In this document: in pieces, positions 1 through 10,740 of the stretch
Position numbering within the stretch: the stretch's first letter is position 1
Layout: each line of letters starts with the position of its first letter
Virus record (IMG/VR): IMGVR_UViG_2579779116_000010
Span: 1 to 10,740 of that record
Strand: one strand, 5' to 3'
DNA length: 10,740 bases
Origin: a virus
Taxonomy: Duplodnaviria > Heunggongvirae > Uroviricota > Caudoviricetes
The notes under the pieces: model-generated
What the model was told of the DNA's origin: nothing
The model's input: the letters and a program-made list of their open reading frames with translations, nothing else
Databases searched by the model: none
Made by a program: the position numbers and the translations under genes

Positions 1-332
1 TCCCCGCCCCATTCGATGGCAGTTCCCAGCTCTGCGGCAGCCTGCTTAAATGCCTGCGCGATTTTCTCGTACAGAGGCCAGTCCCATGACACCTGGCTGC
101 CAACCCAGGCCACAACATCCACCGCATCACCGGTCAGGTGGCGGCTGTTCATGGTCTGGCTCTTGCCTTCTGCAACCAGCTGTTTCTGGCGTTCTTTCGT
201 GCGCAGGCCTTCCGTAATACCGAAATCAACCTCCGTCAGCTCCAGCGCACGGCGAACGACAGCAACCAGCTGTGGTTTAACGCCCTCCAGATTTTTCTCG
301 CTCCGACGACTGAATCTGAATTTACCCGACAT
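1..332 (-). CDS. Endolysin, peptidase M15 family (L-Ala-D-Glu / VanY-type peptidase), 5' part only; continues beyond the window start
   Basis: Minus-strand ORF with ATG at 330-332 and SD GAGGTG about 5 nt upstream, open to the window edge (so absent from the ORF track). Translation MSGKFRFSRRSEKNLEGVKPQLVAVVRRALELTEVDFGITEGLRTKERQKQLVAEGKSQTMNSRHLTGDAVDVVAW... contains the S-x-H-x3-D-x2-D zinc-site signature typical of M15 peptidases. It directly follows two membrane-protein genes. Confidence 0.7.
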   Translation of the reverse strand, partial: MSGKFRFSRRSEKNLEGVKPQLVAVVRRALELTEVDFGITEGLRTKERQKQLVAEGKSQTMNSRHLTGDAVDVVAWVGSQVSWDWPLYEKIAQAFKQAAAELGTAIEWGG

Positions 333-334
333 AT

Positions 335-610
335 TCACCTCAACAATGGAAAGATTTTTGTGACGTTCCCGCGTGCGCGTATCACCAGCACGCAGAACAG
401 CAGATTAAAAAACACTTCCAGCCAGCCCGTTGCTAACGGGCGACCACACAGATAGCTGAGGGGCGCAAAGGCATACAGCAGCATCAGCAGCCAGGCCAGC
501 CATGACATCAGCGGTTTGTGCGTGGCATCTTTTCGGCGATAAAAAAAGAACGTCAGCACGATAACCGTGCATAACGCCACATTCAGCAATCCGGGAAGGT
601 TACTTAACAT
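335..610 (-). CDS. Small membrane protein of the lysis cassette (putative holin or antiholin), 91 aa
   Basis: ORF-track ORF 335..610. ATG at 608-610 preceded by GGAGG about 7 nt upstream. Two to three hydrophobic helices (LPGLLNVALCTVIVLTFFFY, WLAWLLMLLYAFAPLSYL, WLEVFFNLLFCVLVI). Its start overlaps the stop of the upstream membrane-protein gene and its stop lies 2 nt before the endolysin start. Family not recognised. Confidence 0.5.
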   Translation of the reverse strand: MLSNLPGLLNVALCTVIVLTFFFYRRKDATHKPLMSWLAWLLMLLYAFAPLSYLCGRPLATGWLEVFFNLLFCVLVIRARGNVTKIFPLLR

Positions 611-992
611 TGCCGCCTCCTCCGCCCCTCAGGCGGGAGAACAGGCCGGACACCAGTGATGCGATATCCTGCTGGTGGATGAATGACAGAATCTTCACTG
701 ACACCACCGATACCAGCACCGCACACAGCGCATCTGCCGATGTACCGTCATACCCTGTTTTTGATGTAATCCAGGCTGACAGTACACGTGCTCCCAGCAC
801 GCCGACGATAAACGACACCAGAAAATGCGCCGCCACACGCCAGGCGGAAATCTTCTGCGGCACAGTTGCCACAAACAAAGCCCCCGCGAACGCACCAAAC
901 ACAATCCCGAAATCCGTTCCGGTGAACAGCCCGAATACCGTCGCCCCTCCGAGCGCAGCCGCCGTGCCGGAACCGGATAAGGGTTCAGACAT
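600..992 (-). CDS. Gly/Ala-rich multi-helix membrane protein, putative holin, 130 aa
   Basis: Part of ORF-track ORF 600..1064, re-started at the internal ATG 990-992 (MSEPLSGSG...) because it has AGGAG 8 nt upstream and a minus-strand terminator at 1012-1033 lies inside the longer ORF. Gly/Ala-rich transmembrane segments (GGATVFGLFTGTDFGIVFGAFAGALFVA, AHFLVSFIVGVLGARVLSAWI, ALCAVLVSVVSVKILSFI). First gene of the lysis cassette. Confidence 0.5.
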   Translation of the reverse strand: MSEPLSGSGTAAALGGATVFGLFTGTDFGIVFGAFAGALFVATVPQKISAWRVAAHFLVSFIVGVLGARVLSAWITSKTGYDGTSADALCAVLVSVVSVKILSFIHQQDIASLVSGLFSRLRGGGGGNVK

Positions 993-1011
993 ACTTTTTT
1001 CTCCTGTAAAT

Positions 1012-1033
1012 AAAAAAGGGCCACCAGCGGCCC
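1012..1033 (-). terminator. Intrinsic terminator-like hairpin immediately upstream of the holin-like gene
   Basis: Plus strand aaaaaa GGGCC accagc GGCCC (1012-1033). On the minus strand this reads as a 5-bp GC stem followed by T6. Confidence 0.4.
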
Positions 1034-1161
1034 GTAAAAAACACCCCGTCAAAAGCACCGGCATCCGCAGATGCCCTTTGCGTGGCGTTATTTGATGCGC
1101 GCCAGATGTGGCGCAAAGAAATGAAATAAGACTTATCGGAAATTAAGGTTAATTTGAGGAT

Positions 1162-1189
1162 TTGAACCACTTATGAAGCTTAGTAGAAT
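1162..1189 (+). promoter_or_regulatory. Candidate sigma-70 promoter (TTGAAC-N16-TAGAAT) for a plus-strand small transcript
   Basis: TTGAAC at 1162-1167, 16-nt spacer, TAGAAT at 1184-1189. Lies about 120-150 nt upstream of the plus-strand terminator at 1311-1343. No ORF with an RBS follows. Confidence 0.3.
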
Positions 1190-1195
1190 GAACAT

Positions 1196-1343
1196 GTCCC
1201 CGGAAGGGGCCAATACTTATTATTCTTCATGGACTTTGTCCCGCGGTCTTAATCCGACGACCACGCTACTTTTCACCCTCTCGCAAATTGCTATCTAAAG
1301 AACGTTGTCCCACGAGTATTCCTGGATGCTCGTGTCTTTTTTT
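1196..1343 (+). ncRNA. Candidate small RNA (about 150 nt) between promoter-like element and intrinsic terminator
   Basis: Predicted transcript from about 1196 to the terminator at 1311-1343. Has a 5'-proximal GC hairpin (CCCCGGAAGGGG, about 1197-1210). The only internal ORF (34 codons) lacks an SD. Identified from signals only, not homology. Confidence 0.25.
1311..1343 (+). terminator. Intrinsic terminator, plus strand
   Basis: CACGAG (1311-1316), 12-nt loop, CTCGTG (1329-1334), then TCTTTTTTT (1335-1343). Confidence 0.45.
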
Positions 1344-1356
1344 GTCCTGAGAAAGG

Positions 1357-1385
1357 AATAAAAAAAACCGCCAGATATGGCGGTT
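1357..1385 (-). terminator. Strong intrinsic terminator, minus strand
   Basis: Minus strand reads AACCGCCA-tatc-TGGCGGTT followed by a run of about 9 T (plus-strand A-run 1357-1367, stem 1366-1385). Convergent with the plus-strand terminator 12 nt away. Confidence 0.6.
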
Positions 1386-2319
1386 GGTCAATGCAAGGGA
1401 TGAATTTTTTAATTGTTATTAAACCGAGGCGCCGGGTGCCTCCCGAAGTATTCCGTGCTGTATGGATACTGTGGTTTCCCGCTAAACCGACTCTATAAAC
1501 CACCCTCGCGCTGAGGAACGCCCCAATTCATGTTTTTCAACACAGAGAAGCGCATCACTGGTTACTCAACGCTAAATCCGGCTTCCTGTCGTGGGCAATG
1601 CGCCATTTCTGTGTCATAAAAAAATACAGCACTGAATCCGTAACCGATCTCCATTACAGAATGAGGCCCAACAAAGGAATTAACGAGATCTGTTCCTCAC
1701 AAAAAACGCCAGTGCTGTAAAAACTCATCAAAGAACAATGAATGTGCGGAGAACAGGAATCGAACCAGTATCACTAACCTAAAAGGCTGAAGTAATAGCC
1801 ACTGTACGATACCTGTATATAGAGCGGGCCTCCGTAACCACAGTAATGATACTATAACAATATGATTAAACGGATGCCAGCAATGACCCGCGAGGCAGCT
1901 GGTCATGCGCCAGCGAACACAGACTCGCTGCCTTTTGGGTCGGGAGTAATATTACCGATAAATCATATGACATCAAAAAATAATTGGTTTTAAGATTTTA
2001 ATATGTGTATAAATATGTATCAGATAAATACAAATTATTTTATTTCATCCAGAATTCTGATTTTACGCAAGAGATTGCTAAAAAATAACACAAACATGAT
2101 CGGTTTGGGAACAAACCAATTCCGTTGTCGCAATAAATAACAGGAAATACTCCGGGCACAACGGAGCGCAAGAATTACATCAGCAGTGGTTTTTGTAACG
2201 TTTAACGTTAATTGTATCGTTGATAGAAAAGCTTTGACGCAATATAGTGAACTAACAGGGCCTGACGAATAGCCCTATTACGCCGAGCTAATAGCGCTGC
2301 CAGCTAAACTTGCATGGAA

Positions 2320-2396
2320 TGGTCCGCCACCGAGGACTCGAACCTCGCACCATCAACTTAGAAGGTTGATGCTCTATCCCGATGAGCTAGTGGCGG
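2320..2396 (-). tRNA. tRNA-Arg, anticodon UCU (reads AGA), 77 nt with encoded CCA
   Basis: Reverse complement CCGCCAC-TA-GCTC-ATCGGGATA-GAGC-A-TCAAC-CTTCTAA-GTTGA-TGGTG-CGAGG-TTCGAGT-CCTCG-GTGGCGG-A-CCA folds as a cloverleaf: 7-bp acceptor stem, D stem GCTC/GAGC, anticodon loop CU-UCU-AA, T loop TTCGAGT. Resembles E. coli argU and the argN-type tRNA of lambdoid/Stx phages. Confidence 0.85.
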
Positions 2397-2397
2397 T

Positions 2398-2473
2398 TGG
2401 TGGCCCTTGCTGGATTTGAACCAGCGACCTGGCGATTATGAGTCGCTCGCTCTCACCACTGAGCTAAAGGGCC
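2398..2473 (-). tRNA. tRNA-Ile2 (anticodon CAU, lysidine type; formally Met-like), 76 nt with encoded CCA
   Basis: Reverse complement GGCCCTTTAGCTCAGTGGTGAGAGCGAGCGACTCATAATCGCCAGGTCGCTGGTTCAAATCCAGCAAGGGCCACCA. Cloverleaf with anticodon loop CT-CAT-AA. Very close to my recollection of E. coli ileX/ileY; corresponds to ileZ of lambdoid phages. Separated from tRNA-Arg by 1 nt. Confidence 0.85.
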
Positions 2474-2590
2474 GGGCGCAGGATAATAACGTTACAAAAT
2501 CAATGTTGCAAGCATTCAAAAATCACCTGGTTAAAAATCCCCCTTACTTCCTCCACCAGCGCATTCACCATGTCTATCCGAGATAAGTGG

Positions 2591-2630
2591 CACAAAAAAC
2601 CCGCATTTGGGCGGGTTTTGTTTGCTTTTG
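2591..2630. terminator. Bidirectional intrinsic terminator; on the minus strand the tR'-like terminator of the late leader
   Basis: AACCCGC (2598-2604), loop atttgg, GCGGGTT (2611-2617). T-rich tract follows on the plus strand (2618-2630) and an A-run precedes it (2591-2598), which reads as T-run on the minus strand. Confidence 0.6.
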
Positions 2631-2670
2631 CCATCACGTACAAAATCGGCAAAATATCAGATTTGCATGA

Positions 2671-2699
2671 AATATATGCCTTTCAATCTACTTTTGCAA
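2671..2699 (-). promoter_or_regulatory. pR'-like late promoter (TTGCAA-N17-TATATT) overlapping the 3' end of the Q-like gene
   Basis: Minus strand -35 TTGCAA (plus 2694-2699), 17-nt spacer, -10 TATATT (plus 2671-2676). Predicted start near 2664, about 70 nt upstream of the tR'-like terminator. This matches the lambda Q/pR'/tR' arrangement. Confidence 0.45.
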
Positions 2700-3372
2700 C
2701 ACTTTGCTTTGAAAATGCCGCCTTTTGTTTTGAACGCGTTCTCATTACAAACAATAAAGCCCCACTATCCAGTCGGTAAAAAATGTGTTTCATTGCAACC
2801 CAGTGACGAGTAAATGTTTTGGACCAGTTTTTAGTTGTCACTCCCGCCAGTAATGCCAGCTCCTGGTATTCATAACCTTCCCCACCAAAAAGTTCTGCTT
2901 TTACTGCCTGCGCCGCCAGCCAGATTAATTTTTTCAGGCGTTCCTGCGTTTTCCCTGCAATTTTTCTGGTACCGGATTGAGTATTAAATTCATTCCACGC
3001 CCACTGTGTTATCGCGATCTGATATTCCCAACAAATACTCCCGCTGTAACACCACAACAACCAGGCTTTATGATGTTCTTCAAGAGACAGAACAGCCCGC
3101 CGCCACGATGATGTCGAAAACTCAACCGGACTGACCAGAGGAATTGACGTCCCCTTCGCCAGCGATTGTTTCCCCGGGATTGGTGGATTATCCCGCGTAA
3201 TCATTTTTCCGGTCACTTCATCTCGGTACCGGATTTTTTTACGCCTGTAACGCCCTGTATCAAACATGGCATTCTCCTGCCAGGCTTCAAGCTGACCTTT
3301 TGTTGCCCCACTCAAATCAGCGGTGGCGATAATGAGCTGCTCACGCACAAACTGTAAATACTGGTTATTCAT
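2683..3372 (-). CDS. Putative late-gene antiterminator (Q-like), 229 aa
   Basis: ORF-track ORF 2683..3378, trimmed to the ATG at 3370-3372, which overlaps the rusA stop as ATGA. Assigned by position only: directly downstream of rusA and directly upstream of the pR'/tR' module and phage tRNAs. I could not confirm family membership from the sequence. Confidence 0.5.
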   Translation of the reverse strand: MNNQYLQFVREQLIIATADLSGATKGQLEAWQENAMFDTGRYRRKKIRYRDEVTGKMITRDNPPIPGKQSLAKGTSIPLVSPVEFSTSSWRRAVLSLEEHHKAWLLWCYSGSICWEYQIAITQWAWNEFNTQSGTRKIAGKTQERLKKLIWLAAQAVKAELFGGEGYEYQELALLAGVTTKNWSKTFTRHWVAMKHIFYRLDSGALLFVMRTRSKQKAAFSKQSVAKVD

Positions 3373-3734
3373 GCGCACTCCAGTTCTGTGATTTTTATCC
3401 CCAGCCGCCCACCAGGAACGAGCTGACCGCGCACAATATTGATTTCATCAAACTGCTCGTCGTCTATAAGTAGTCCGGCATGCGTCAGCGCATCCAGTGG
3501 TGCCTTCAGGATATTGTCCAGGTCGCGGCGGCGCTTATCCGGTGGCTCCGCAATAATCTTTATCGCCAGCCTTCCGGACAGGTTTAATTTCAACCGCTGC
3601 TGGCGAACAATAAGCGCCACATCACGGCGATAACGCTCACCGGCTTTTGATACAAAATATGTGCTGCCACGACGTCGCCAGTAAGTGTTCACCGTTGGCG
3701 GGTAAGGCAAAACAAATTCTATGCGTTCAGTCAT
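3369..3734 (-). CDS. rusA: Holliday-junction resolvase RusA (crossover junction endodeoxyribonuclease), 121 aa
   Basis: ORF-track ORF 3369..3734. MTERIEFVLPYPPTVNTYWRRRGSTYFVSKAGERYRRDVA...PDKRRRDLDNILKAPLDALTHAGLLIDDEQ...GGRLGIKITE aligns motif by motif with E. coli RusA as I recall it (LPxPPSxNxYY, PDRRRRDLDN, DALT, DD, GGRL, ITE), including the catalytic Asp cluster. Confidence 0.85.
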   Translation of the reverse strand: MTERIEFVLPYPPTVNTYWRRRGSTYFVSKAGERYRRDVALIVRQQRLKLNLSGRLAIKIIAEPPDKRRRDLDNILKAPLDALTHAGLLIDDEQFDEINIVRGQLVPGGRLGIKITELECA

Positions 3735-4793
3735 TCATGCTTTCCACTTCAGGACACCCGAATTTCTCGCGTGCATTAAAAAACGAATCAGCAACAACAG
3801 CTGGCTGCCGTGTTTTTCTTCAAAATCTTTTACCCCGGCGTGCAGTTCGTTATGACATTTACGGCACAGCGGAATAACAAACAAATCATCAGCCTTTGTT
3901 CCCATCCCTCCCAGTCCATGACCAATGATGTGATGCGGATCATCTGCCTGATTACCGCACGTCATGCATTTCTGCGTTTTTACCCAGCGCGTGTATACAG
4001 GCATCTCTTCCCGTTGTGGTTTCTGGCGCTGGAGATACTGAGTCGGTGACTCCGGATCAACAGCAATGCTGACCACCGTCTTTTCCTGTGGCGGGTTCTG
4101 TTGCTGGTGGGCGTGAGGCAGCGGCGCAAGATTTTTTGTGCGCTGTTTCAGTATGCTGGTGGCGGTCTGCTCTCCCGGTACGATGTCGCTTTCACGGTAC
4201 ATTGAGCGGATTTTTTCCGCACGCAACCCCAGCGAACGACGTAATACCACTTCCGGTAGCGCGTCCGCCACCTGATTGCGGACCGCCCACCAGGATAATT
4301 CAGCCAGAGATAATTCACGCTCCTGCGTACCGCTTATTGCGTGACCGATGACGTCAATCATCCATGCTGACAGGTTTTGATGAGCAAGTTGCTCGAGTGA
4401 TTCGGATGTCTGGTCACGCAGCTGGTTGTCGCAGTGCCAGCACAACACCATTGCGCCGGTACCATAACGGTGAATAACGGTTTCGCTGTGATGATAATCG
4501 CCGTGTGGCCACTGGCAGGATTTAACATGACGCAGGAGCCAGTCAGACAGTGCACCAGCGCCGCCGGCAGCACGAATCACCCGCTCATCGCTGAAAAATG
4601 GCAGCAGAGATTTGTCTTCTGCCAGCGGCTGGCGAACGGCAGGAACGACCCCGGACGGCAGACCGCGCATGCTTTTTGGCTCCGGTTCAACCAGCACTCT
4701 GCCGTTATGGAATACCTGCATGGATTCACGACCTGGCTTAAGGACCACCAGCCCGAGTTCCGGTACCGGAACAGGTCGAAGTAATACGCGCAC
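3735..4793 (-). CDS. ydfU: DUF968-type protein with C-terminal HNH-like zinc-finger motif (YdfU-like), 352 aa, GTG start
   Basis: ORF-track ORF 3735..4793. GTG start with GGAG 5 nt upstream. C-terminus CMTCGNQADDPHHIIGHGLGG...IPLCRKCHNELH has a CxxC...HH...CxxCH pattern. The size and its position between a small ORF and the nin/Q region match my recollection of Qin ydfU; the gene symbol is by synteny only. Confidence 0.6.
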   Translation of the reverse strand: MRVLLRPVPVPELGLVVLKPGRESMQVFHNGRVLVEPEPKSMRGLPSGVVPAVRQPLAEDKSLLPFFSDERVIRAAGGAGALSDWLLRHVKSCQWPHGDYHHSETVIHRYGTGAMVLCWHCDNQLRDQTSESLEQLAHQNLSAWMIDVIGHAISGTQERELSLAELSWWAVRNQVADALPEVVLRRSLGLRAEKIRSMYRESDIVPGEQTATSILKQRTKNLAPLPHAHQQQNPPQEKTVVSIAVDPESPTQYLQRQKPQREEMPVYTRWVKTQKCMTCGNQADDPHHIIGHGLGGMGTKADDLFVIPLCRKCHNELHAGVKDFEEKHGSQLLLLIRFLMHARNSGVLKWKA

Positions 4794-4794
4794 G

Positions 4795-5067
4795 TTATCT
4801 CCAGATTCGTTGCTGGAATGTGCGGGACGGGCGTGGTGGGCGTTCGGAATAAGGGAGCCTGACGTAGATTATCCAGTGACGATAATCGAGGCTGAGAGCT
4901 TTCCTAAACTCATACCCACGTCTGCGGTAGTTATGAATCAGCCATTCGGCCTGTTCTTCAGTGCAGGGGTCATGCTGGTACCAGTCACATTTGAATGTGT
5001 GAGGGCGCCGCCCGTGCCCGCTGGCAAGGTCGGTATCAGAATTGTGATGTTTGGTATTGTGCGCCAT
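4795..5067 (-). CDS. Hypothetical protein, about 90 aa, in the position that rem occupies in Qin
   Basis: ORF-track ORF 4795..5148 uses a TTG start that lies inside the terminator at 5138-5165, so I shortened it to the first ATG (5065-5067, MAHNTKHH...). SD is weak (AGAGA). The stop abuts the GTG start of the DUF968 gene. No recognisable motif. Confidence 0.35.
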   Translation of the reverse strand: MAHNTKHHNSDTDLASGHGRRPHTFKCDWYQHDPCTEEQAEWLIHNYRRRGYEFRKALSLDYRHWIIYVRLPYSERPPRPSRTFQQRIWR

Positions 5068-5137
5068 CGGTTGTCTCTGCTGGCGCAGCAGGTGCCAGTT
5101 GTTCAGGCTGGCATGCGTATTGTAAACCAGAATGCCA

Positions 5138-5165
5138 GAAAAAAACAAAACCCGCCGAAGCGGGT
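5138..5165 (-). terminator. Intrinsic terminator downstream of the lipoprotein gene
   Basis: Minus strand reads ACCCGC-TTCG-GCGGG-TTTTGTTTTTTT (plus 5139-5165): 5-bp GC stem, UUCG tetraloop, T-rich tail. Confidence 0.6.
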
Positions 5166-5294
5166 ATGCTAAAACAAACTGAAGGTAATATGCCGGACTT
5201 GTAAAGGAACGATAGAATAATTATCGGATTAAATCCTGACTCAATCCATAGGGTTTACAGCGTTTTCACTAATAATTTACCGTCCCGCTATACA

Positions 5295-5687
5295 TTACTG
5301 CCCTGTTTTAACGAAGTTTTTAAAGGAAACAACTGCCTGATAGGGGTTTGGTTGACAGCCAAACATATTGTCGCAAAAAGGCTTGATGAAAATTCTTGAG
5401 GATCCATCTTCATTTGGCATTTTACTCACTTGATAAGCGAGGAATGGACTATTTGGAGAGGGATTATAAGTGGAAATTAGCGTGTCTGTCGCCGTTTGAA
5501 TTTTCCATGAGGAATTATTAGCCAACCAGAATTGCGCTCGTTTCCAATAAAAGTCACATTGCTTTTCATCATTACATGTTAGTGGCTTCATTGCTTCTGC
5601 TTTCAACGCTGGATCGACCTTTGCTGCACACCCTCCCAACATTACTGTTGCAATCATTACACCTGCGACTAAAACAAGTTTCTTCAT
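5295..5687 (-). CDS. Lipoprotein, 130 aa (signal peptide with lipobox LGG-C, mature part with four further Cys); moron-like
   Basis: ORF-track ORF 5295..5687. MKKLVLVAGVMIATVMLGGC... is a classic type II signal peptide with lipobox. Visibly more AT-rich than the flanking genes. Bracketed by terminator-like hairpins at 5745-5765 and 5138-5165. No family recognised. Confidence 0.7.
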   Translation of the reverse strand: MKKLVLVAGVMIATVMLGGCAAKVDPALKAEAMKPLTCNDEKQCDFYWKRAQFWLANNSSWKIQTATDTLISTYNPSPNSPFLAYQVSKMPNEDGSSRIFIKPFCDNMFGCQPNPYQAVVSFKNFVKTGQ

Positions 5688-5744
5688 CTCCCTGCCCCAT
5701 CAATAAAAGTTCGGTTCTCTAATAACTAGAGTTAATCAACGGAA

Positions 5745-5765
5745 AAAACGCCGAAGCGGGTTAAG
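5745..5765 (-). terminator. Weak intrinsic terminator-like element downstream of hokD
   Basis: Minus strand CCCGC-TTCG-GCG-TTTTTT (plus 5743-5761): short 3-bp stem with UUCG loop and T6. Shares the exact 13-mer CGCCGAAGCGGGT with the terminator at 5153-5165. Confidence 0.3.
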
Positions 5766-5830
5766 TGCGGGTGCGTTGAGGATGCCTGACACATCAGAGG
5801 TGGCGAGGGATTTCTCCCCCGCCAGGTCTC

Positions 5831-5986
5831 TTACTCCTCAGGTTCGTAAGCTGTGAAGACAGCGACCTCCGTCTGGCCGGTTCGGATTCGTACCTCGCAG
5901 AGGTCTTTCCTCGTTACCAGTGCCGTCACTATGACGGTTAAACAGATGACGATCAGGGCGATTAACATCGCCTTTTGCTGCTTCAT
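5831..5986 (-). CDS. hokD: Hok-family type I toxin HokD (RelF), 51 aa
   Basis: Not in the ORF track (under 60 aa). Reverse complement of 5831-5986 translates to MKQQKAMLIALIVICLTVIVTALVTRKDLCEVRIRTGQTEVAVFTAYEPEE, which matches my recollection of K-12 HokD. It lies directly downstream of relE, as in the relBEF operon. Confidence 0.85.
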   Translation of the reverse strand: MKQQKAMLIALIVICLTVIVTALVTRKDLCEVRIRTGQTEVAVFTAYEPEE

Positions 5987-6057
5987 AGCCTGCTTCTCCT
6001 GTCAACGCAAAGCAGAAGTGTCACCTTCGGTGCGAAACAGAGATGTCATGCTTTGGT

Positions 6058-6345
6058 TCAGAGAATGCGTTTGACCGCCTCGCTATATACTTCCGAGCGT
6101 TCTCTTTTCCCAACAGAAATCACGAAAACGACAACTTTCTCGTCTATAACCTGGTATACAAGGCGATAGCCTGAAGACCGGAGCTTAATCTTGTAACAAT
6201 CAGGCATACCACGGAGCTTGTTTGCTTCAATCCGGGGTGACTCAAGTACTTCAACCAGCTTCTTTTTCAACTGTTCACGTACCGTCGAGCCCAGCTTTCG
6301 CCATTCCTTTAGTGCCCGCTCGTCAAAATCCAGAAAATACGCCAT
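6058..6345 (-). CDS. relE: RelE mRNA-interferase toxin, 95 aa
   Basis: ORF-track ORF 6058..6345. MAYFLDFDERALKEWRKLGSTVREQLKKKLVEVLESPRIEANKLRGMPDCYKIKLRSSGYRLVYQVIDEKVVVFVISVGKRERSEVYSEAVKRIL is essentially the K-12 RelE sequence as I recall it. Its start overlaps the relB stop (TGATG). Confidence 0.92.
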   Translation of the reverse strand: MAYFLDFDERALKEWRKLGSTVREQLKKKLVEVLESPRIEANKLRGMPDCYKIKLRSSGYRLVYQVIDEKVVVFVISVGKRERSEVYSEAVKRIL

Positions 6346-6584
6346 CAGAGTTCATCCAGCGTCACACGTACTGGCTTAGGATTACGAAGCCGTTCTTTCA
6401 CTATCTCCACAAGTTCAGCATCTTCATCACTCAGGAGTGTCTGTTTGAACGGCAAGCGTTCATTGTCAGCGATATACTCGAGCATGAGACGAAGCGCTTC
6501 AGAAGGAGTTACACCCATTTTTTCAAGCGCGGCGTAAGAACGCGCTTTAAGTTCATCGTCAATACGCAGGTTAATGCTACCCAT
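6345..6584 (-). CDS. relB: RelB antitoxin, 79 aa
   Basis: ORF-track ORF 6345..6584. MGSINLRIDDELKARSYAALEKMGVTPSEALRLMLEYIADNERLPFKQTLLSDEDAELVEIVKERLRNPKPVRVTLDEL matches my recollection of K-12 RelB, with a ribbon-helix-helix N-terminus. Confidence 0.92.
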   Translation of the reverse strand: MGSINLRIDDELKARSYAALEKMGVTPSEALRLMLEYIADNERLPFKQTLLSDEDAELVEIVKERLRNPKPVRVTLDEL

Positions 6585-6596
6585 GTCTTACACCTC

Positions 6597-6648
6597 TTGT
6601 AATTACAAATGTCATTACAAGTATCGCACTACAACATGCTTAGGGCAA
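6597..6648 (-). promoter_or_regulatory. relBE promoter with relO operator (hexad repeats)
   Basis: Minus strand -35 TTGCCC (plus 6643-6648), 17-nt spacer, -10 GATACT (plus 6620-6625). Downstream lies TTGTAATGACATTTGTAATTACAAG (plus 6597-6621), containing TTGTAA/TTACAA-type hexads as described for the RelB operator. Confidence 0.7.
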
Positions 6649-6914
6649 GTCACGAAGGAAGTCAGAAAGTAGTCGTAAGAACGGTGATCACTGTCCGCTT
6701 TGTGCCAGGAGCAGCCATTGCTAAGTCCATCCTGTATTGTGCAGGTCAGCTCGTTTTTAAAGAGTCCGGCCATCATCTTACTGGTACAGACACCATATAC
6801 TTTGTGACGGTCAGGCTACATATGCACAACTCAACTTATTCATCTATTTTTTGCTTTAGCATGTCAGTGTTGCTTTCTCGTCGGCGGGTGAGCGGTGACC
6901 TGACCTGTCGATAA
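6609..6914 (+). CDS. ydfV: Doubtful ORF, 101 aa, in the position and size of K-12 ydfV
   Basis: ORF-track ORF 6609..6914. Same length as I recall for YdfV, between relB and flxA. It starts inside the relBE promoter/operator, has no convincing SD, and its composition is not protein-like (MSLQVSHYNMLRASHEGSQ...). Listed for completeness. Confidence 0.2.
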   Translation: MSLQVSHYNMLRASHEGSQKVVVRTVITVRFVPGAAIAKSILYCAGQLVFKESGHHLTGTDTIYFVTVRLHMHNSTYSSIFCFSMSVLLSRRRVSGDLTCR

Positions 6915-7066
6915 AGGAACGTAACACGTTTTATGCAACACCCGCATGCGGCAGAAAATTATTGCCGAACGTTTACCCCTGTCAACAAGCTTTACTTTCT
7001 GAGGCGCGCCAGCCCGCGAGGAAAACAATCTGAACATCAAACAATTAATGACACAAGAAATACGAT

Positions 7067-7093
7067 TAAAGATTTTTTTGTGCATGCCGATAG
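7067..7093 (+). promoter_or_regulatory. Sigma-28 (FliA) class 3 promoter of flxA
   Basis: TAAAGATT (7067-7074), 11-nt spacer, GCCGATAG (7086-7093), versus the consensus TAAAGTTT-N11-GCCGATAA. SD AAGGAG at 7105-7110, ATG at 7117. Confidence 0.75.
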
Positions 7094-7116
7094 TGCTTTT
7101 TTAAAAGGAGAAATCT

Positions 7117-7449
7117 ATGTCTGTCACAATTCAGGGAAATACCTCAACCGTTATTTCAAACAACTCCGCCCCGGAAGGAACATCAGAAATAGCCAAAATC
7201 ACAAGACAAATTCAGGTGCTGACTGAAAAGCTTGGGAAAATCTCATCGGAAGAGGGGATGACGACACAGCAGAAAAAAGAAATGGCTGCATTGGTACAGA
7301 AGCAAATTGAAAGCCTCTGGGCTCAACTGGAGCAGTTGTTAAGGCAGCAGGCAGAGAAAAAGAATGAAGACGCGACAGTTCAGCCTGATAAAAAAGAAGA
7401 GAAAAAAGACGATACAAATACCGCTGGCACCATTGATATTTACGTCTAA
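7117..7449 (+). CDS. flxA: FlxA, FliA-regulated protein of unknown function, 110 aa
   Basis: ORF-track ORF 7117..7449. Strong SD. Coiled-coil-like, Lys/Glu/Gln-rich sequence (MSVTIQGNTSTVISNNSAPEGTSEIAKITRQIQVLTEKLGK...). Position next to relB and the sigma-28 promoter match K-12 flxA as I recall it. Confidence 0.85.
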   Translation: MSVTIQGNTSTVISNNSAPEGTSEIAKITRQIQVLTEKLGKISSEEGMTTQQKKEMAALVQKQIESLWAQLEQLLRQQAEKKNEDATVQPDKKEEKKDDTNTAGTIDIYV

Positions 7450-7463
7450 GTGACAGCCGTATT

Positions 7464-7490
7464 GTGGCCCTCATCGGGCCACTTTTCGCC
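7464..7490 (+). terminator. Intrinsic terminator of flxA
   Basis: GTGGCCC (7464-7470), loop tcatc, GGGCCAC (7476-7482), then TTTT. Starts 15 nt after the flxA stop. Confidence 0.6.
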
Positions 7491-7759
7491 ATCAGCCTTT
7501 TCTTTAAAGACATATTATCTTTGTATCATTTCTGATAGTTAACATTACAAGATATAAGTAATGGACGCACTCCCAATTAGTCTATTTAAATCGCCACGAG
7601 TTTAACTGACAACCCATGATCAATTATGAATTGCAACTATTTCTGTAGTCACTTTTGTGGGGACAGTCCACAAAACTGCCAACTTCCGCTTCTTGCTCTT
7701 AGCGGACATTAGCATAGGCTATTTACCATAACGCCTCATTACGCGCACCGCCCAGACTG

Positions 7760-9270
7760 ACTCAGCGCGTTTCTGGCATATCCCCGGTAAAACAAGTAAC
7801 AAACCACCCGAAAATGAACACCAGAAACGCGACTTAAGAATCTACCCTATGAATGGATATGCACTCAACCGAATCGATCTTGGTTTCAATCTTTTTTATC
7901 GGGATCAGGCTTCTTTTTAGGTAACTTCGGGGGCTTAACTTGCTGATGACTTTGCGTTCGGCGCGTAAGCCAGGGATGGTCAGCTTTAGGTTTAACATAG
8001 TATTTTGAGCGTAAATCAATACGGGCATTATCCACTCGTTCATGGACACTCTTTTCATCATCCGGTGGTATAGGCTCCGGGCCATCAACATACTTTTCCC
8101 AGCCCAGCGCTTTCCCGTCATACAGAACGTTAATTTCACCGTCAAAGTTCTCGCATACAGTAACAACCGAATGCCTAAGTCGATATCCCCGGCCCTCACT
8201 GCGTACCTGAAACGCACTGCTTTTGTACTGGAAAGTGAGATTTTTAGACAGAACGCGCTTCGCCTGTAGGCTGAAGATATAACCCAGTTCCTCTTCAGAA
8301 TGGTGCACATCAAGATGAGCATTATCAGTAGTACGAGGCGACGTAGCGAACCGGTTGTTATAGGCTTCAATAAAGGTCGGCAACCATGCATTTGCTGTTT
8401 CAATATCACTGATATTCTGAAGCCGCATTTCTTTGACCAGCCTGTCCTGTAGTGTCTGATTGGCGCGCTCTACCCGCCCTTTTGCCTGCGGGCTGTTGGC
8501 ATGGATTGGCTCGATGCCCAGTGTCTTTATCGCACGAGTGAACTGGGTCAGCTCACCTTCCCGCTCTGGGTTATTTACCCTGAATATACTGTGTCTATCA
8601 GAGTAGAGAGCGAGCGGTACGCCATGATCATTAAGGTAACCCCGGAGGGTTTCCATGTAAGCCCGGGTTGTTTCAGCAGGCACAAAACGCAACGCCATCA
8701 ACGCACTGGTGGCATCATCAATGAAAACGATCAGTGTACATCTGGGGCCTCGATTTTCAAACCAGTCATGAGGTGAGCCATCAATCTGGATCAGTTCACC
8801 GTAAGATGGTCGTCGCATGCGGCGTTGATATATACGGGCAATTTTACGACGGCGTTCACGCCATAACCCCTCTTCTATCATCCACTTTCTGAGAGTTTCA
8901 ACGGATAAAGATAAACCGTGTATCTCGCGCAATTTTTCGCACGCAAACGTAGGTCCAAAATCAGCGTAACGGCCTTTGAGGAGTGAAATTACTGTTGCTC
9001 TGAATTCAGTAGAAAAGGAATTATTAGGACGCTTTCCACGTCGGTGGGAAACCAGACCAGAAGGCCCTTCATTTCTATACCGTTGCACCAGACGTTTAAC
9101 CTGCCGAATAGAAATGCCAATGCGTGCCGCAGCTTGTTCCTGAATAATCTGAAGTCGGTGGAGTTCCTTATGACTCATCGTAACAGTCTCTTTGATCATG
9201 AAAAATCCCCCAGAGAATTGTCTGGGGACATTTTAGAATGGTTCAAAGGGGACATTACAGCTTGGTGTTA
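7760..9270 (-). mobile_element. Insertion sequence carrying the DDE transposase; boundaries approximate
   Basis: Transposase gene plus flanking repeat-rich DNA: an 11-bp perfect inverted repeat CGCGTTTCTGG / CCAGAAACGCG at 7766-7776 and 7821-7831, and two GGGGACATT direct repeats at 9224-9232 and 9249-9257. I could not identify matching terminal inverted repeats or a target-site duplication. Confidence 0.3.
7886..9199 (-). CDS. DDE transposase (rve / integrase-core type, N-terminal HTH), 437 aa; IS481- or ISNCY-like, family not resolved
   Basis: ORF-track ORF 7886..9199. N-terminal HTH-like region (SHKELHRLQIIQEQAAARIGISIRQVKRLVQRY). Catalytic triad candidates are D in LIQIDGSPHDW, D in ALYSDRHSIF and E in GRVERANQTLQDR with basic residues after the E. 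Single long ORF with SD GGGGGA. Confidence 0.8.
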   Translation of the reverse strand: MIKETVTMSHKELHRLQIIQEQAAARIGISIRQVKRLVQRYRNEGPSGLVSHRRGKRPNNSFSTEFRATVISLLKGRYADFGPTFACEKLREIHGLSLSVETLRKWMIEEGLWRERRRKIARIYQRRMRRPSYGELIQIDGSPHDWFENRGPRCTLIVFIDDATSALMALRFVPAETTRAYMETLRGYLNDHGVPLALYSDRHSIFRVNNPEREGELTQFTRAIKTLGIEPIHANSPQAKGRVERANQTLQDRLVKEMRLQNISDIETANAWLPTFIEAYNNRFATSPRTTDNAHLDVHHSEEELGYIFSLQAKRVLSKNLTFQYKSSAFQVRSEGRGYRLRHSVVTVCENFDGEINVLYDGKALGWEKYVDGPEPIPPDDEKSVHERVDNARIDLRSKYYVKPKADHPWLTRRTQSHQQVKPPKLPKKKPDPDKKD

Positions 9271-9533
9271 ACAATAGCCTGCTTCTCCGTGCCTTTCGGC
9301 ACGTAAGAGGCTAACCTACATGTGTCTAGCATGAAATTGGCCTCAGATTAATGTTAAGCGTCTTGCAGGACGCGTAATGTTAACTGGGGCTTTTCTCTAT
9401 CTGCCGTTGGTGTCCATGCCCGAGGCAGATAGCCTCAAGCACCCGCAGTCATTCTACTTAACTAAGATTTCCCCGCAAACCGTTTTTGTCCAGCACAGTA
9501 AATATCCAACTAAACCAATGGAGTTCGCTGTAT

Positions 9534-9713
9534 TTACCGCCAGTATTCAATGCACATGACCGCCATGAACACCCCTAAAAAAAGGGCATTTATATATCCA
9601 AATATTAATATCAAAACATCAACTTTTTCCATATACCTTGCTGTGAAGATGATGGGCATACATGATGCGAACAACCAGAACGCAACAAACAAAAACTGCA
9701 ATGCGTTTTTCAT
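9534..9713 (-). CDS. Small two-helix membrane protein, 59 aa
   Basis: Part of ORF-track ORF 9534..9752, re-started at the internal ATG 9711-9713 because AGGAGG lies 4 nt upstream (GTAGGAGGAATA-ATG). MKNALQFLFVAFWLFASCMPIIFTARYMEKVDVLILIFGYINALFLGVFMAVMCIEYWR has two hydrophobic helices. Embedded in an AT-rich island. No family recognised. Confidence 0.45.
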   Translation of the reverse strand: MKNALQFLFVAFWLFASCMPIIFTARYMEKVDVLILIFGYINALFLGVFMAVMCIEYWR

Positions 9714-9967
9714 TATTCCTCCTACAATCAATGTGCAATTACATTTAAACACACCTCAATTTGGCCGGACATATAAATATCTAAACCAGAAAAAATCACT
9801 TACATAGCGTTACAAACTCTTTAGTCTAAAGGTTCATCGTAAAACATTCCCCATACTTATCAGTCCGTTCCGCGCCAGGTAGCTCATTGCCTTATCTGGC
9901 AACCTGTAATCAGGTTTCCGCTTTTTCAGTTGGCTGGTCGTTTAACCGACATAGTTAATCCATTAAT

Positions 9968-10255
9968 CTAGTTGCCGGATGTTGGTGGATTTTCGCGTTT
10001 TAGTTGTTCATAAAAGTGCACAGCTTTAACCAGTTCTTCTGATGTAACTGGGACTGGTGAGGCAGTGAATAAGGCCTGAATTTGATAGTTCGGCCTGTCG
10101 TTACAATCCTCTTTTTTCGGTACATATTTCCAGTCACCAGACCACTACTTCCCCTGAAAGTCCGTAACGCCTTTTTTCACGTAGCGATATCGCCATGCCA
10201 CTGGTTTTGCTTGCCCCGCCGTTTCATGCCCTTCCTGATAATTAATCTCGCTCAT
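9968..10255 (-). pseudogene. 95-codon gene interrupted by an in-frame TAG at codon 37 (36-aa ORF, then a 58-codon open continuation)
   Basis: ATG at 10253-10255 overlaps the upstream stop as ATGA. MSEINYQEGHETAGQAKPVAWRYRYVKKGVTDFQGK-TAG-WSGDWKYVPKKEDCNDRPNYQIQALFTASPVPVTSEELVKAVHFYEQLKRENPPTSGN-TAG. The TAG is at plus 10145-10147. Confidence 0.35.
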
Positions 10256-10443
10256 TCATCGCCCCACTCATCACAATATGCTTCGACCGGAGTTTTTCCC
10301 GCTTCATAGTCATCACGCTAGGATTCGACATCAGCAGCACTTCCACCGCGTAACTCACCATAGTCCATTAATAGTTCATCCCGCTCTTCAAAACTGATGT
10401 TATATTTAGCTGAACAAAAATCAGCCACTTTGTTCTTCCTCAT
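10252..10443 (-). pseudogene. 63-codon acidic gene interrupted by an in-frame TAG at codon 42; its final stop overlaps the start of the next gene
   Basis: ATG at 10441-10443. MRKNKVADFCSAKYNISFEERDELLMDYGELRGGSAADVES-TAG-RDDYEAGKTPVEAYCDEWGDE-TGA. The TAG is at plus 10318-10320. The terminal TGA (10252-10254) overlaps the downstream ATG as ATGA. Confidence 0.3.
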
Positions 10444-10492
10444 CGTCTTTTATTTCGTGGTATGAGTAATTGCAGTAGTTAAAGAAAATTTC

Positions 10493-10603
10493 TTATGCTC
10501 CGTCATGAATTTCCTCAGGTGTTGCGTCATCGTCCACTTCGAATACATCCTCAAAATCTCCACCAGCTATTCCCGTTTCAATAATAATTTTGAACTTTCG
10601 CAT
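10493..10603 (-). CDS. Short acidic ORF, 36 aa
   Basis: ATG at 10601-10603. MRKFKIIIETGIAGGDFEDVFEVDDDATPEEIHDGA. An AGGAGG lies 24 nt upstream, with a 6-bp GC hairpin (CCGCCC-gaaa-GGGCGG, plus 10611-10626) in between. Coding status uncertain. Confidence 0.2.
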   Translation of the reverse strand: MRKFKIIIETGIAGGDFEDVFEVDDDATPEEIHDGA

Positions 10604-10740
10604 TTCACTACCGCCCTTTCGGGCGGCCTCCTGATGTTCTGAGGGTGCAGAAATCCATCCGGTTAAGGATTAAATTTTATTTACAGAACTGAATTTAACT
10701 ATTCAGATATACGTATCTGTGATCTTACCCAGCAATAGTG

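Follow-up and report, generated by a model that had tools for sequence, protein, structure and literature searches.

A probable RNA-only moron at the stx position of a lambdoid prophage

In enteropathogenic Escherichia coli (EPEC) E2348/69, the small RNAs (sRNAs) PasA and PasC are encoded antisense and directly upstream of the holin (PMC8550237; bioRxiv 10.64898/2026.05.13.724894), and in prophages of enterohaemorrhagic E. coli (EHEC) convergent sRNA pairs at the moron site have been described (Tree et al. 2014, PMC4104026), with STnc100 reported 75 nucleotides (nt) downstream of stx2 (a 2025 paper, PMC12370729). In phage 933W, as located by Rfam, STnc100 (plus strand, which is the late strand there) directly follows stx2B and is convergent with AsxR (minus strand). 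A sRNA can also derive from the 3' trailer of a tRNA operon, as does 3'ETS-leuZ of E. coli. Here we present an analysis of a 10,740-nt stretch of viral DNA (IMG/VR record IMGVR_UViG_2579779116_000010, positions 1 to 10,740; hereafter the window), and specifically of the 1327-nt gap (2319..993, minus strand) between its tRNA-Arg gene and its first holin gene. The late genes are all on the minus strand, in the order Q, pR'/tR', tRNA-Ile2, tRNA-Arg, the 1327-nt non-coding gap and a holin-holin-endolysin cassette of the P27 type, which is the scaffold that a first reading of the DNA (the original prediction) had likened to that of Shiga toxin (Stx) phages. Since phage phiP27 shares these tRNAs and this holin cassette, with stx2eAB and L27 lying between them, the label "stx slot" is correct for this interval.

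We propose, with a probability of about 0.65, that the interval is an RNA-only moron, made up of non-coding RNA genes and terminators at the place where related phages carry stx. Within it there is no coding signal, the modules are homologous to those of other prophages, promoter hexamers are conserved, helices covary, and wobble pairs and U-runs are specific to one strand; the RNAs themselves are presumed to be produced, processed and bound by Hfq, and to have targets. Measured against a moron in the sense of Juhala et al. (2000), the locus is a variable unit between shared flanks with its own promoters and terminators, which are predicted and conserved, and it carries no protein-coding gene. 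The alternative offered at the outset, a decayed moron or RNA-level or regulatory cargo, has thus been narrowed: RNA cargo is favored by a promoter, a tRNA pseudogene, two covarying RNAs and terminators, whereas a decayed moron is disfavored by open reading frames (ORFs) that are broken in most homologs and lack Pfam or PHROG matches. Three elements are new relative to that first account: the remains of a tRNA-Gly gene (1816..1745), a putative conserved promoter within the AT-rich block and a small plus-strand transcription unit at 1162..1344. The parts of the interval, in the direction of late transcription, are the following.

2319..2041, minus strand: trailer of tRNA-Arg, ~280 nt
2040..1945, minus strand: AT-rich block with putative promoter pT2 (-35 TTGATG at 1976..1971, 16-nt spacer, -10 TAATAT at 1954..1949, upstream A/T tract)
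1816..1745, minus strand: tRNA-Gly(UCC) pseudogene (Rfam RF00005, 22.4 bits against a gathering score of 29)
1718..1616, minus strand: T1, a branched hairpin with a closing stem of 9-11 base pairs (ACAGCACUG/CAGUGCUGU), then U7
1559..1386, minus strand: STnc100-like multi-helix RNA (outer helix 1559..1551 with 1395..1386; core 1527..1423)
1385..1358, minus strand: T2, intrinsic terminator from the terminator scan (AACCGCCAUAUCUGGCGGUU + U8)
~1196..1290/1344, plus strand: candidate small RNA X, antisense to the late operon, from a predicted transcription start site
1196..1344, plus strand: parts of X, namely a 5' hairpin, a U/A-rich single strand, a GGAC-UUU-GUCC hairpin, a terminator-like hairpin (1242..1265) and a second terminator (1311..1334 + U7)
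1162..1189, plus strand: predicted promoter of X from the promoter scan, TTGAAC-16-TAGAAT (TTAAAC with TAGTAT or TAATAT in relatives)
1113..1094 and 1075..1060, minus strand: hairpins before T3, from the terminator scan
1033..1012, minus strand: T3, predicted terminator (GGGCCGCUGGUGGCCC + U6), directly before the holin ribosome-binding site and ~20 nt before the holin start

Like the pair formed by STnc100 and AsxR or AgvB (PMC4104026; RF02076, RF02703, RF02702), these elements lie downstream of Q, pR' and the tRNAs and upstream of the lysis genes, and a structured late-strand RNA of ~200 nt with its own terminator faces a short sRNA on the antisense strand, an arrangement that we checked in 933W; the late-strand RNA is thus found in a moron slot opposite an antisense sRNA, as STnc100 is. 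Its predicted parts come in the same order as those of STnc100 of 933W: a closing helix, a first hairpin of the form CCYC/GRGG, hairpins in the middle, a final hairpin that lies against the closing helix and has the identical AGGCA loop (CGGG-AGGCA-CCCG), an A/U tail and a terminator. Unlike STnc100, it is sub-threshold in Rfam and is tied to a tRNA-Gly promoter and relic, not to the 3' end of stx; and, unlike the pair of Stx phages, no protein cargo lies here between the tRNAs and the sRNA pair. In X, as in AgvB and AsxR, the 3' module is conserved and the 5' part varies, but X has no sequence similarity to them and is predicted to be ~90-150 nt long, as against 51-60 nt with a conserved ~42-nt 3' region. 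As for the Pas sRNAs (Pearl Mizrahi et al. 2021, PMC8550237; Zhu, Shabalina and Storz, 2026 preprint), the candidate X gene directly precedes the holin and lies on the strand opposite to the late operon, and the short and long isoforms proposed for X have a counterpart in the reported PasA isoforms of 85 and 236 nt; unlike them, X has tRNA modules as neighbors and not a sialate esterase, and it shows no sequence similarity to PasA or PasD2. The Stx2e phage phiP27 (NC_003356) has the tRNA-Ile/tRNA-Arg pair, the holin-holin-M15 endolysin cassette and ~100 nt with T3 before the holin in common with the window, and differs in having stx2eAB and L27 in the slot and a methylase instead of Q upstream; neither X nor the STnc100-like RNA was detected in phiP27. 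The likeness to tRNA-trailer sRNAs is that a structured RNA follows a tRNA, with a tRNA-type promoter at the head and an intrinsic terminator at the end; unlike those, the unit here is phage-borne, its tRNA is decayed, and co-transcription and processing are presumed. Overall, we regard the locus as belonging to a known kind, the convergent sRNAs of moron sites. It stands out in that it lacks protein cargo, is linked to a tRNA unit that has decayed and includes what seems to be an sRNA family not described before.

Protein coding was addressed over the whole gap, for which a slot of ~1.3 kb with no credible ORF had been claimed; at 1327 nt, with ORFs broken in most homologs and no Pfam or PHROG match, that description is accurate. 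The two minus-strand ORFs singled out then, 1291..1503 and 1697..1906, are present as placed and encode 70 and 69 amino acids. In most of the 43 distinct homologs examined, the first is interrupted by a stop at codon 3, by indels that shift the frame, or by both; its frame is that of a "hypothetical protein" called by PGAP in ETEC4085, and its translation crosses the hairpin and U-run of T2. The second overlies the tRNA relic and is disrupted in all lineages save two near-identical copies. Scanning the nine translations of gap ORFs of at least 30 amino acids against Pfam and PHROG gave nothing significant, and tblastn with 17 slot proteins of relatives (StxA/B, L27, SASA esterase, TerB, DUF3927 and 933W p43 among them) recovered only spurious ORFs overlying the same DNA. 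A protein-coding reading of the gap was rejected on ORF breakage together with these negatives, and no conserved intact protein-coding gene was found. Nor is the interval a deletion scar common to many genomes: of 5426 complete E. coli genomes, only 7 have the full arrangement, most of them from porcine isolates, and hundreds have one or other of its modules. A scar left by loss of stx2e in particular was rejected; outside the tRNAs and the final ~100 nt preceding the holin there is no similarity to the P27 stx region, which argues for cassette exchange and not for decay of stx.

Database "hypothetical proteins" lie over the conserved terminators and the sRNA block (WP_064226585.1, WP_001298832.1, URC09393/4), at 2610..3008 (minus) of L064 (ETEC4085), at 2392..2517 (plus) of L063, and at 2972..3289 and 3397..3522 (minus) of L005; calls of this kind that cross terminators and the sRNA block are probably annotation artefacts.

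The core of the late-strand RNA comprises a closing helix and four hairpins, CGGG-AGGCA-CCCG being one of them, together with an A/U tail. When a nine-helix structure was tested on 34 distinct sequences (alignment A4), 96.3% of cells were paired, compared with 40-53% when the 3' partners were slid, and 8 pairs changed on both sides, compared with 3.7 +/- 0.9 in shuffles, none of the 500 shuffles reaching 8. A representative compensatory change is GAGGCG/CGCCUC to GAGGUG/CACCUC. Furthermore, the one-sided changes in the helix GUGGUUU/AAACCAC, from G-C to G-U and from U-A to U-G, are tolerable on the late strand only. T2 is kept in all homologs, with variants in both loop and stem. The best non-self match of a covariance model of the core (R1) was the STnc100 locus of 933W, at 20.4 bits and an E-value of 0.0017 with rough calibration; PasD2 was not matched.

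For X, 52 distinct homologous sequences collected from IMG/VR and from genomes (alignment A3) fell into three sequence types. On this alignment 94.4% of cells were paired, versus 31-48% when slid, and the covariation score was 0.216 versus 0.128 +/- 0.005, exceeded in 0 of 500 shuffles. The 5' hairpin covaries between CCCC/GGGG and CUCC/GGAG, and the invariant core, AUGGACUUUGUCCCGCGG, runs into a hairpin that covaries between U-A and C-G in a 26:26 split; compensatory changes are thus seen in the 5' hairpin, the central one and the terminator. The U-G pairs and U-runs of the X terminators are compatible with the plus strand only, and the -35 and -10 elements of the promoter are kept across the three types amid differing flanks. 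In types 2 and 3, the hairpin after the core is followed by U7-8 and so is read as a terminator giving a form of ~90 nt; in the window type, with its weaker U-run, a form of ~150 nt would end at the second terminator. Within the holin-proximal module X is a discrete indel of ~240 nt, one copy in the LT-IIb phage fragment SerU-LTIIb keeping the flanks without X. No conserved start codon or ORF was found in X across the three types. The X block is present in 298 of the 5426 complete E. coli genomes and in only 2 of 50,697 phage records, with no Stx phage among the two; a 16-mer scan of contigs gave 120 loci, mostly chance matches, and the range of X is stated for Escherichia and Shigella only.

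Other identities for X were considered and rejected. A small peptide is excluded by the ATG at 1194, which is not kept in types 2 and 3. Membership of a known Rfam family, for X or for the late-strand RNA, is excluded in that no score reached a gathering threshold: a search over 900..2800 gave no match for X, and the AsxR and AgvB models gave none at E<=1, though the AsxR model finds AsxR in 933W. Homology to PasA or PasD is excluded by chance-level matches only, when PasA, PasD2 and the whole esterase-holin spacer were compared with the slot by blastn; the PasB and PasC probe sequences (PMC8550237), compared with X by eye only, were not seen in it. A full-text literature search for the X core sequence returned no paper.

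Type 3 of the X core is found at 730..850 (plus) of L080, and in L130 and L134; it differs from the other types in its 5' part and has a -10 box of its own and a terminator with U6. This site is an island of E. coli and Shigella flexneri beside a tRNA gene, near Rfam matches to CssrB, IS009 and RNA-OUT, and with no lysis region.

The strongly AT-rich block noted previously has a G+C fraction of 0.31-0.34 across 1901-2200, compared with 0.45-0.58 around it, and contains pT2. In an eight-sequence alignment (A6) the -35 (TTGAT/TTGAA) and the -10 (TAATAT/TAGTAT) of pT2 are held while the spacer has diverged; at 8 of 12 consensus matches it is slightly below the cut-off of the scanner, and its conservation suggests a tRNA-type sigma-70 promoter with an A/T-rich upstream tract. 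Part of the block (2038..1969) corresponds to a ~70-nt element found ~135 nt upstream of an intact tRNA-Gly or tRNA-Thr in the five prophages examined, and, by blastn and alignment, the whole of 2038..1358 aligns with a unit of other prophages composed of promoter, tRNA-Gly, a ~390-nt trailer and terminator. The relic is 72-80% identical to intact, annotated tRNA-Gly(UCC) genes of four other loci (L002, L003, L005 and L006), with the same flanks; only 3-4 of 7 pairs remain in its acceptor stem, the T stem has one mismatch, the anticodon is damaged and there is no CCA. ARAGORN, even relaxed, finds no tRNA at 1816..1745, and the copy in RM11911 scores 31.8 bits. We filed it as a pseudogene because it is homologous to syntenic tRNA-Gly(UCC) genes yet falls below the Rfam gathering score and is ARAGORN-negative; the same two results rule out a third intact tRNA in the gap. 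T1 folds at -34 kcal/mol (z=-3.7, none of 200 shuffles as stable), and its outer stem, GCACUG/CAGUGC, and U-run are kept in all 41 of 41 distinct trailers around a divergent interior; since the outer stem never varies, there is no covariation support for T1. Three terminators had been noted in the slot at first; over 900-2800 there are 9 terminator-like sites, compared with 2.2 +/- 1.5 in shuffles, as well as 9 promoter-like sites, compared with 3.4 +/- 1.5.

The interval is a mosaic whose content varies among relatives with the same flanking genes. From 2319 to ~1433 the window resembles the RM11911, ETEC1730 and OkiPb01675 type at ~85% identity, and from 1522 to 993 it resembles a widespread type at 93-97%; compared segment by segment, the identities point to a recombination junction near 1522, within the STnc100-like element. 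Elsewhere the widespread type follows tRNA-Thr and tRNA-Gly and precedes holins of the P27 or the lambda-S type, and the T3 stretch is likewise kept before both. The mouse-gut isolates M6-M19, ST38 strains and MS14384 are among those that carry the holin-proximal module. Among the 5426 complete genomes, the proximal 480 nt of the gap occurs in 32 and any part of the slot in 425. The first ~100 nt of the tRNA-Arg trailer (2220..2319, minus) is nearly invariant in four lineages, followed by sequence only ~80-85% identical (alignment A7), which may reflect selection or a recombination tract, and it gave no tRNA or Rfam match; conservation of hairpins in the trailer was not convincing in that alignment.

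Within the homologous slot, two relatives have insertion sequences (IS) of the IS1 and IS21 (ISSso4) families, in H8 (LR-21-1) and at 595..2902 of L008 (OkiPb01675); the OkiPb01675 insertion corresponds to window position ~2040, the junction of the tRNA-Arg trailer and the promoter block. SerU-LTIIb (L006) contains two tandem copies of a unit of tRNAs, trailer and holin, at 1122..2424 and 3028..4127, one with the X block and one without it. In ETEC4085, an unannotated tRNA-like sequence (L064, 3207..3279, minus; Rfam 45.9 bits) adjoins the annotated tRNA-Gly where relatives have tRNA-Thr, and is either a missed gene or a decaying one.

A working model can be drawn from these elements. A promoter-like site before the tRNA genes, pT1, would drive tRNA-Ile2 and tRNA-Arg; after the ~280-nt trailer, pT2 would drive a transcript with the decayed tRNA-Gly, T1 and the ~175-nt STnc100-like RNA, ending at T2. 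X, from its own putative sigma-70 promoter (pX), would converge on T2 from the opposite strand. Its build, with a variable 5' part, an invariant 3' module made up of a small hairpin and a terminator hairpin, and U-tails, is by analogy that of an Hfq-type trans-acting sRNA or anti-sRNA whose specificity may reside in the variable 5' part. In the lysogen the RNAs would be expressed from pT1, pT2 and pX, since all three predicted promoters are independent of Q, and T1-T3, T3 especially, would prevent transcription from running on into the lysis genes. Once the prophage is induced, polymerase that starts at pR' and is modified by Q would pass all of these terminators.

Three other accounts of the interval have to be weighed against an RNA-only moron. 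That it holds the remains of a protein-coding moron, a pseudogenised toxin or other cargo, is very improbable and already largely refuted: relatives do hold protein genes in the slot, and PGAP has called "hypothetical proteins" on homologous DNA in ETEC4085 (WP_064226585.1) and in ST38-type strains (WP_001298832.1), but the ETEC4085 ORF is simply the 1291..1503 frame running across T2, that frame and 1697..1906 are broken in their homologs to the extent given above, the Pfam, PHROG and 17-protein tblastn searches were negative, and the substitutions are RNA-like, with paired compensatory changes. A better case can be made for inert recombination debris, leftover tRNA modules in which the terminators alone matter as insulators and RNA structures hitch-hike on recently spread DNA. 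The interval is mosaic, with the breakpoint at ~1522 inside the STnc100-like element, its tRNA-Gly is dead, relatives tolerate IS1 and IS21 insertions, many helices are invariant, and kinship inflates the shuffle statistics; against this, compensatory changes cluster where helices are predicted and pairing drops to 31-53% in the slid controls, the hexamers of pT2 and of the X promoter are kept amid diverged spacers, the X core recurs with wholly different 5' parts and contexts, including the E. coli/Shigella island by a tRNA gene, and the holin-proximal module (module B) is retained before two unrelated holin types. On balance we consider it unlikely. The structures might instead act only in cis within the Q-antiterminated transcript, on processing, stability or lysis timing, with X as a cis-antisense RNA upstream of the holin (through RNase III cleavage or transcriptional interference) and without trans targets. 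X converges on the late transcript and is fully complementary to it shortly before the holin, and module B directly precedes the lysis cassette in every prophage locus examined; the X core is nevertheless found outside a lysis context too and is missing from one otherwise intact module before a holin, the conserved independent promoters and terminators suggest expression in the lysogen, and trans-acting sRNAs such as AgvB and AsxR typically combine a 5' end that varies with a 3' module that does not (PMC4104026). A purely cis-acting role thus seems to us rather improbable.

Several observations weigh against the RNA-only moron itself, or at least against parts of it. The transcription start sites and 3' ends of the RNAs are predictions, and the shuffle controls overstate significance because of the close kinship of the sequences and the recombination among them; no variation is seen in the outer stem of T1 or in the helices GGAC/GUCC and CCUC/GAGG. 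Folded as a single sequence, 1562..1356 shows no greater stability than its shuffles (z=-0.74). The Rfam model of STnc100 (RF02076) gives only 13.5 bits on the late-strand RNA (E=1.3, against a gathering score of 47), with the ends alone aligning, which is why we write "STnc100-like" and do not assign it to the family, and the E-value from R1 is rough. In this lineage no convincing promoter was found directly before the STnc100-like RNA, so its production would need read-through or processing at T1. As to X, the central hairpin in the window has a C-A mismatch (GACCACG), and the hairpin is followed by UUUU only, so that the short form (end at ~1290) may terminate poorly here. Direct repression by X at the translation starts of the holin, second holin, endolysin and Q genes, or pairing with the STnc100-like RNA, was rejected, duplex energies being no better than those of shuffles.

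On the premise of an RNA-only moron, two linked ideas may be put forward, though only tentatively, as we think it rather doubtful that both hold. X would be the founder of an sRNA family of mobile elements that has not been described, one in which the 3' module (AUGGACUUUGUCCCGCGG, a hairpin and a U-tail) stays constant and the 5' targeting ends can be exchanged, present in ~5% of E. coli genomes and in the non-lysis island of E. coli and Shigella; and the STnc100-like RNA would be driven by a retained tRNA-type promoter, possibly growth-rate-controlled, whose tRNA has decayed. If both were true, the toxin slot of this prophage would serve host riboregulation purely. The stx slot is the best-known cargo position of lambdoid phages, and an RNA-only version would help to show the role of the conserved RNA "frame", an STnc100-type RNA and a convergent antisense sRNA, without confounding by the toxin. 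X also offers a concrete, unannotated sRNA candidate for testing in ~300 of the 5426 complete genomes, from stretches that annotation pipelines leave blank or give spurious "hypothetical proteins" across terminators.

The genes and sites that flank the interval, all on the minus strand, are listed here.

3378..2683: antiterminator Q gene of the phage 82 type (PF06323, E=1.8e-91)
2699..2671: pR'-like promoter, TTGCAA-17-TATATT, from the promoter scan
2619..2590: putative tR', hairpin and U-run after a short leader RNA, from the terminator scan
2511..2483: pT1, tRNA promoter-like site, TTGCAA-17-TATTAT, from the promoter scan, ending ~10 nt before tRNA-Ile2
2473..2398: tRNA-Ile2(CAU) (ARAGORN; Rfam 72.5 bits)
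2396..2320: tRNA-Arg(UCU) (ARAGORN; Rfam 59.4 bits)
992..600: first holin gene (PF16931, E=5.7e-24; AGGAG ribosome-binding site at ~1003..999; "putative holin" in PGAP)
610..335: second holin gene (PF05449)

The Q gene is 77% identical in DNA to that of phage 82, and its counterpart in the PEC41 prophage is labeled "antitermination protein Q" by PGAP. That prophage, at 99.6% identity, has the same PGAP gene order with the gap left unannotated. The pR'/tR' unit (2699..2590) would by analogy function as in lambda, phage 82 and 933W. In sequence, tRNA(CAU) does not differ from ileZ of 933W, in whose record a "pT putative tRNA promoter" is annotated at the position equivalent to pT1.

The leader RNA from pR' to tR' (2667..2594, minus) has weak, sub-threshold Rfam matches to two sRNAs of Salmonella prophages, isrJ (27.7 bits) and isrK (22.9 bits); this leader may be a terminated leader RNA of the StxS/6S-like kind. 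Beyond ~5112 the window departs from the PEC41 prophage, and the early region upstream has a ParE-family toxin ORF at 6058..6345 (minus) and an IS-type transposase of 437 amino acids with helix-turn-helix and rve domains at 7886..9199 (minus).

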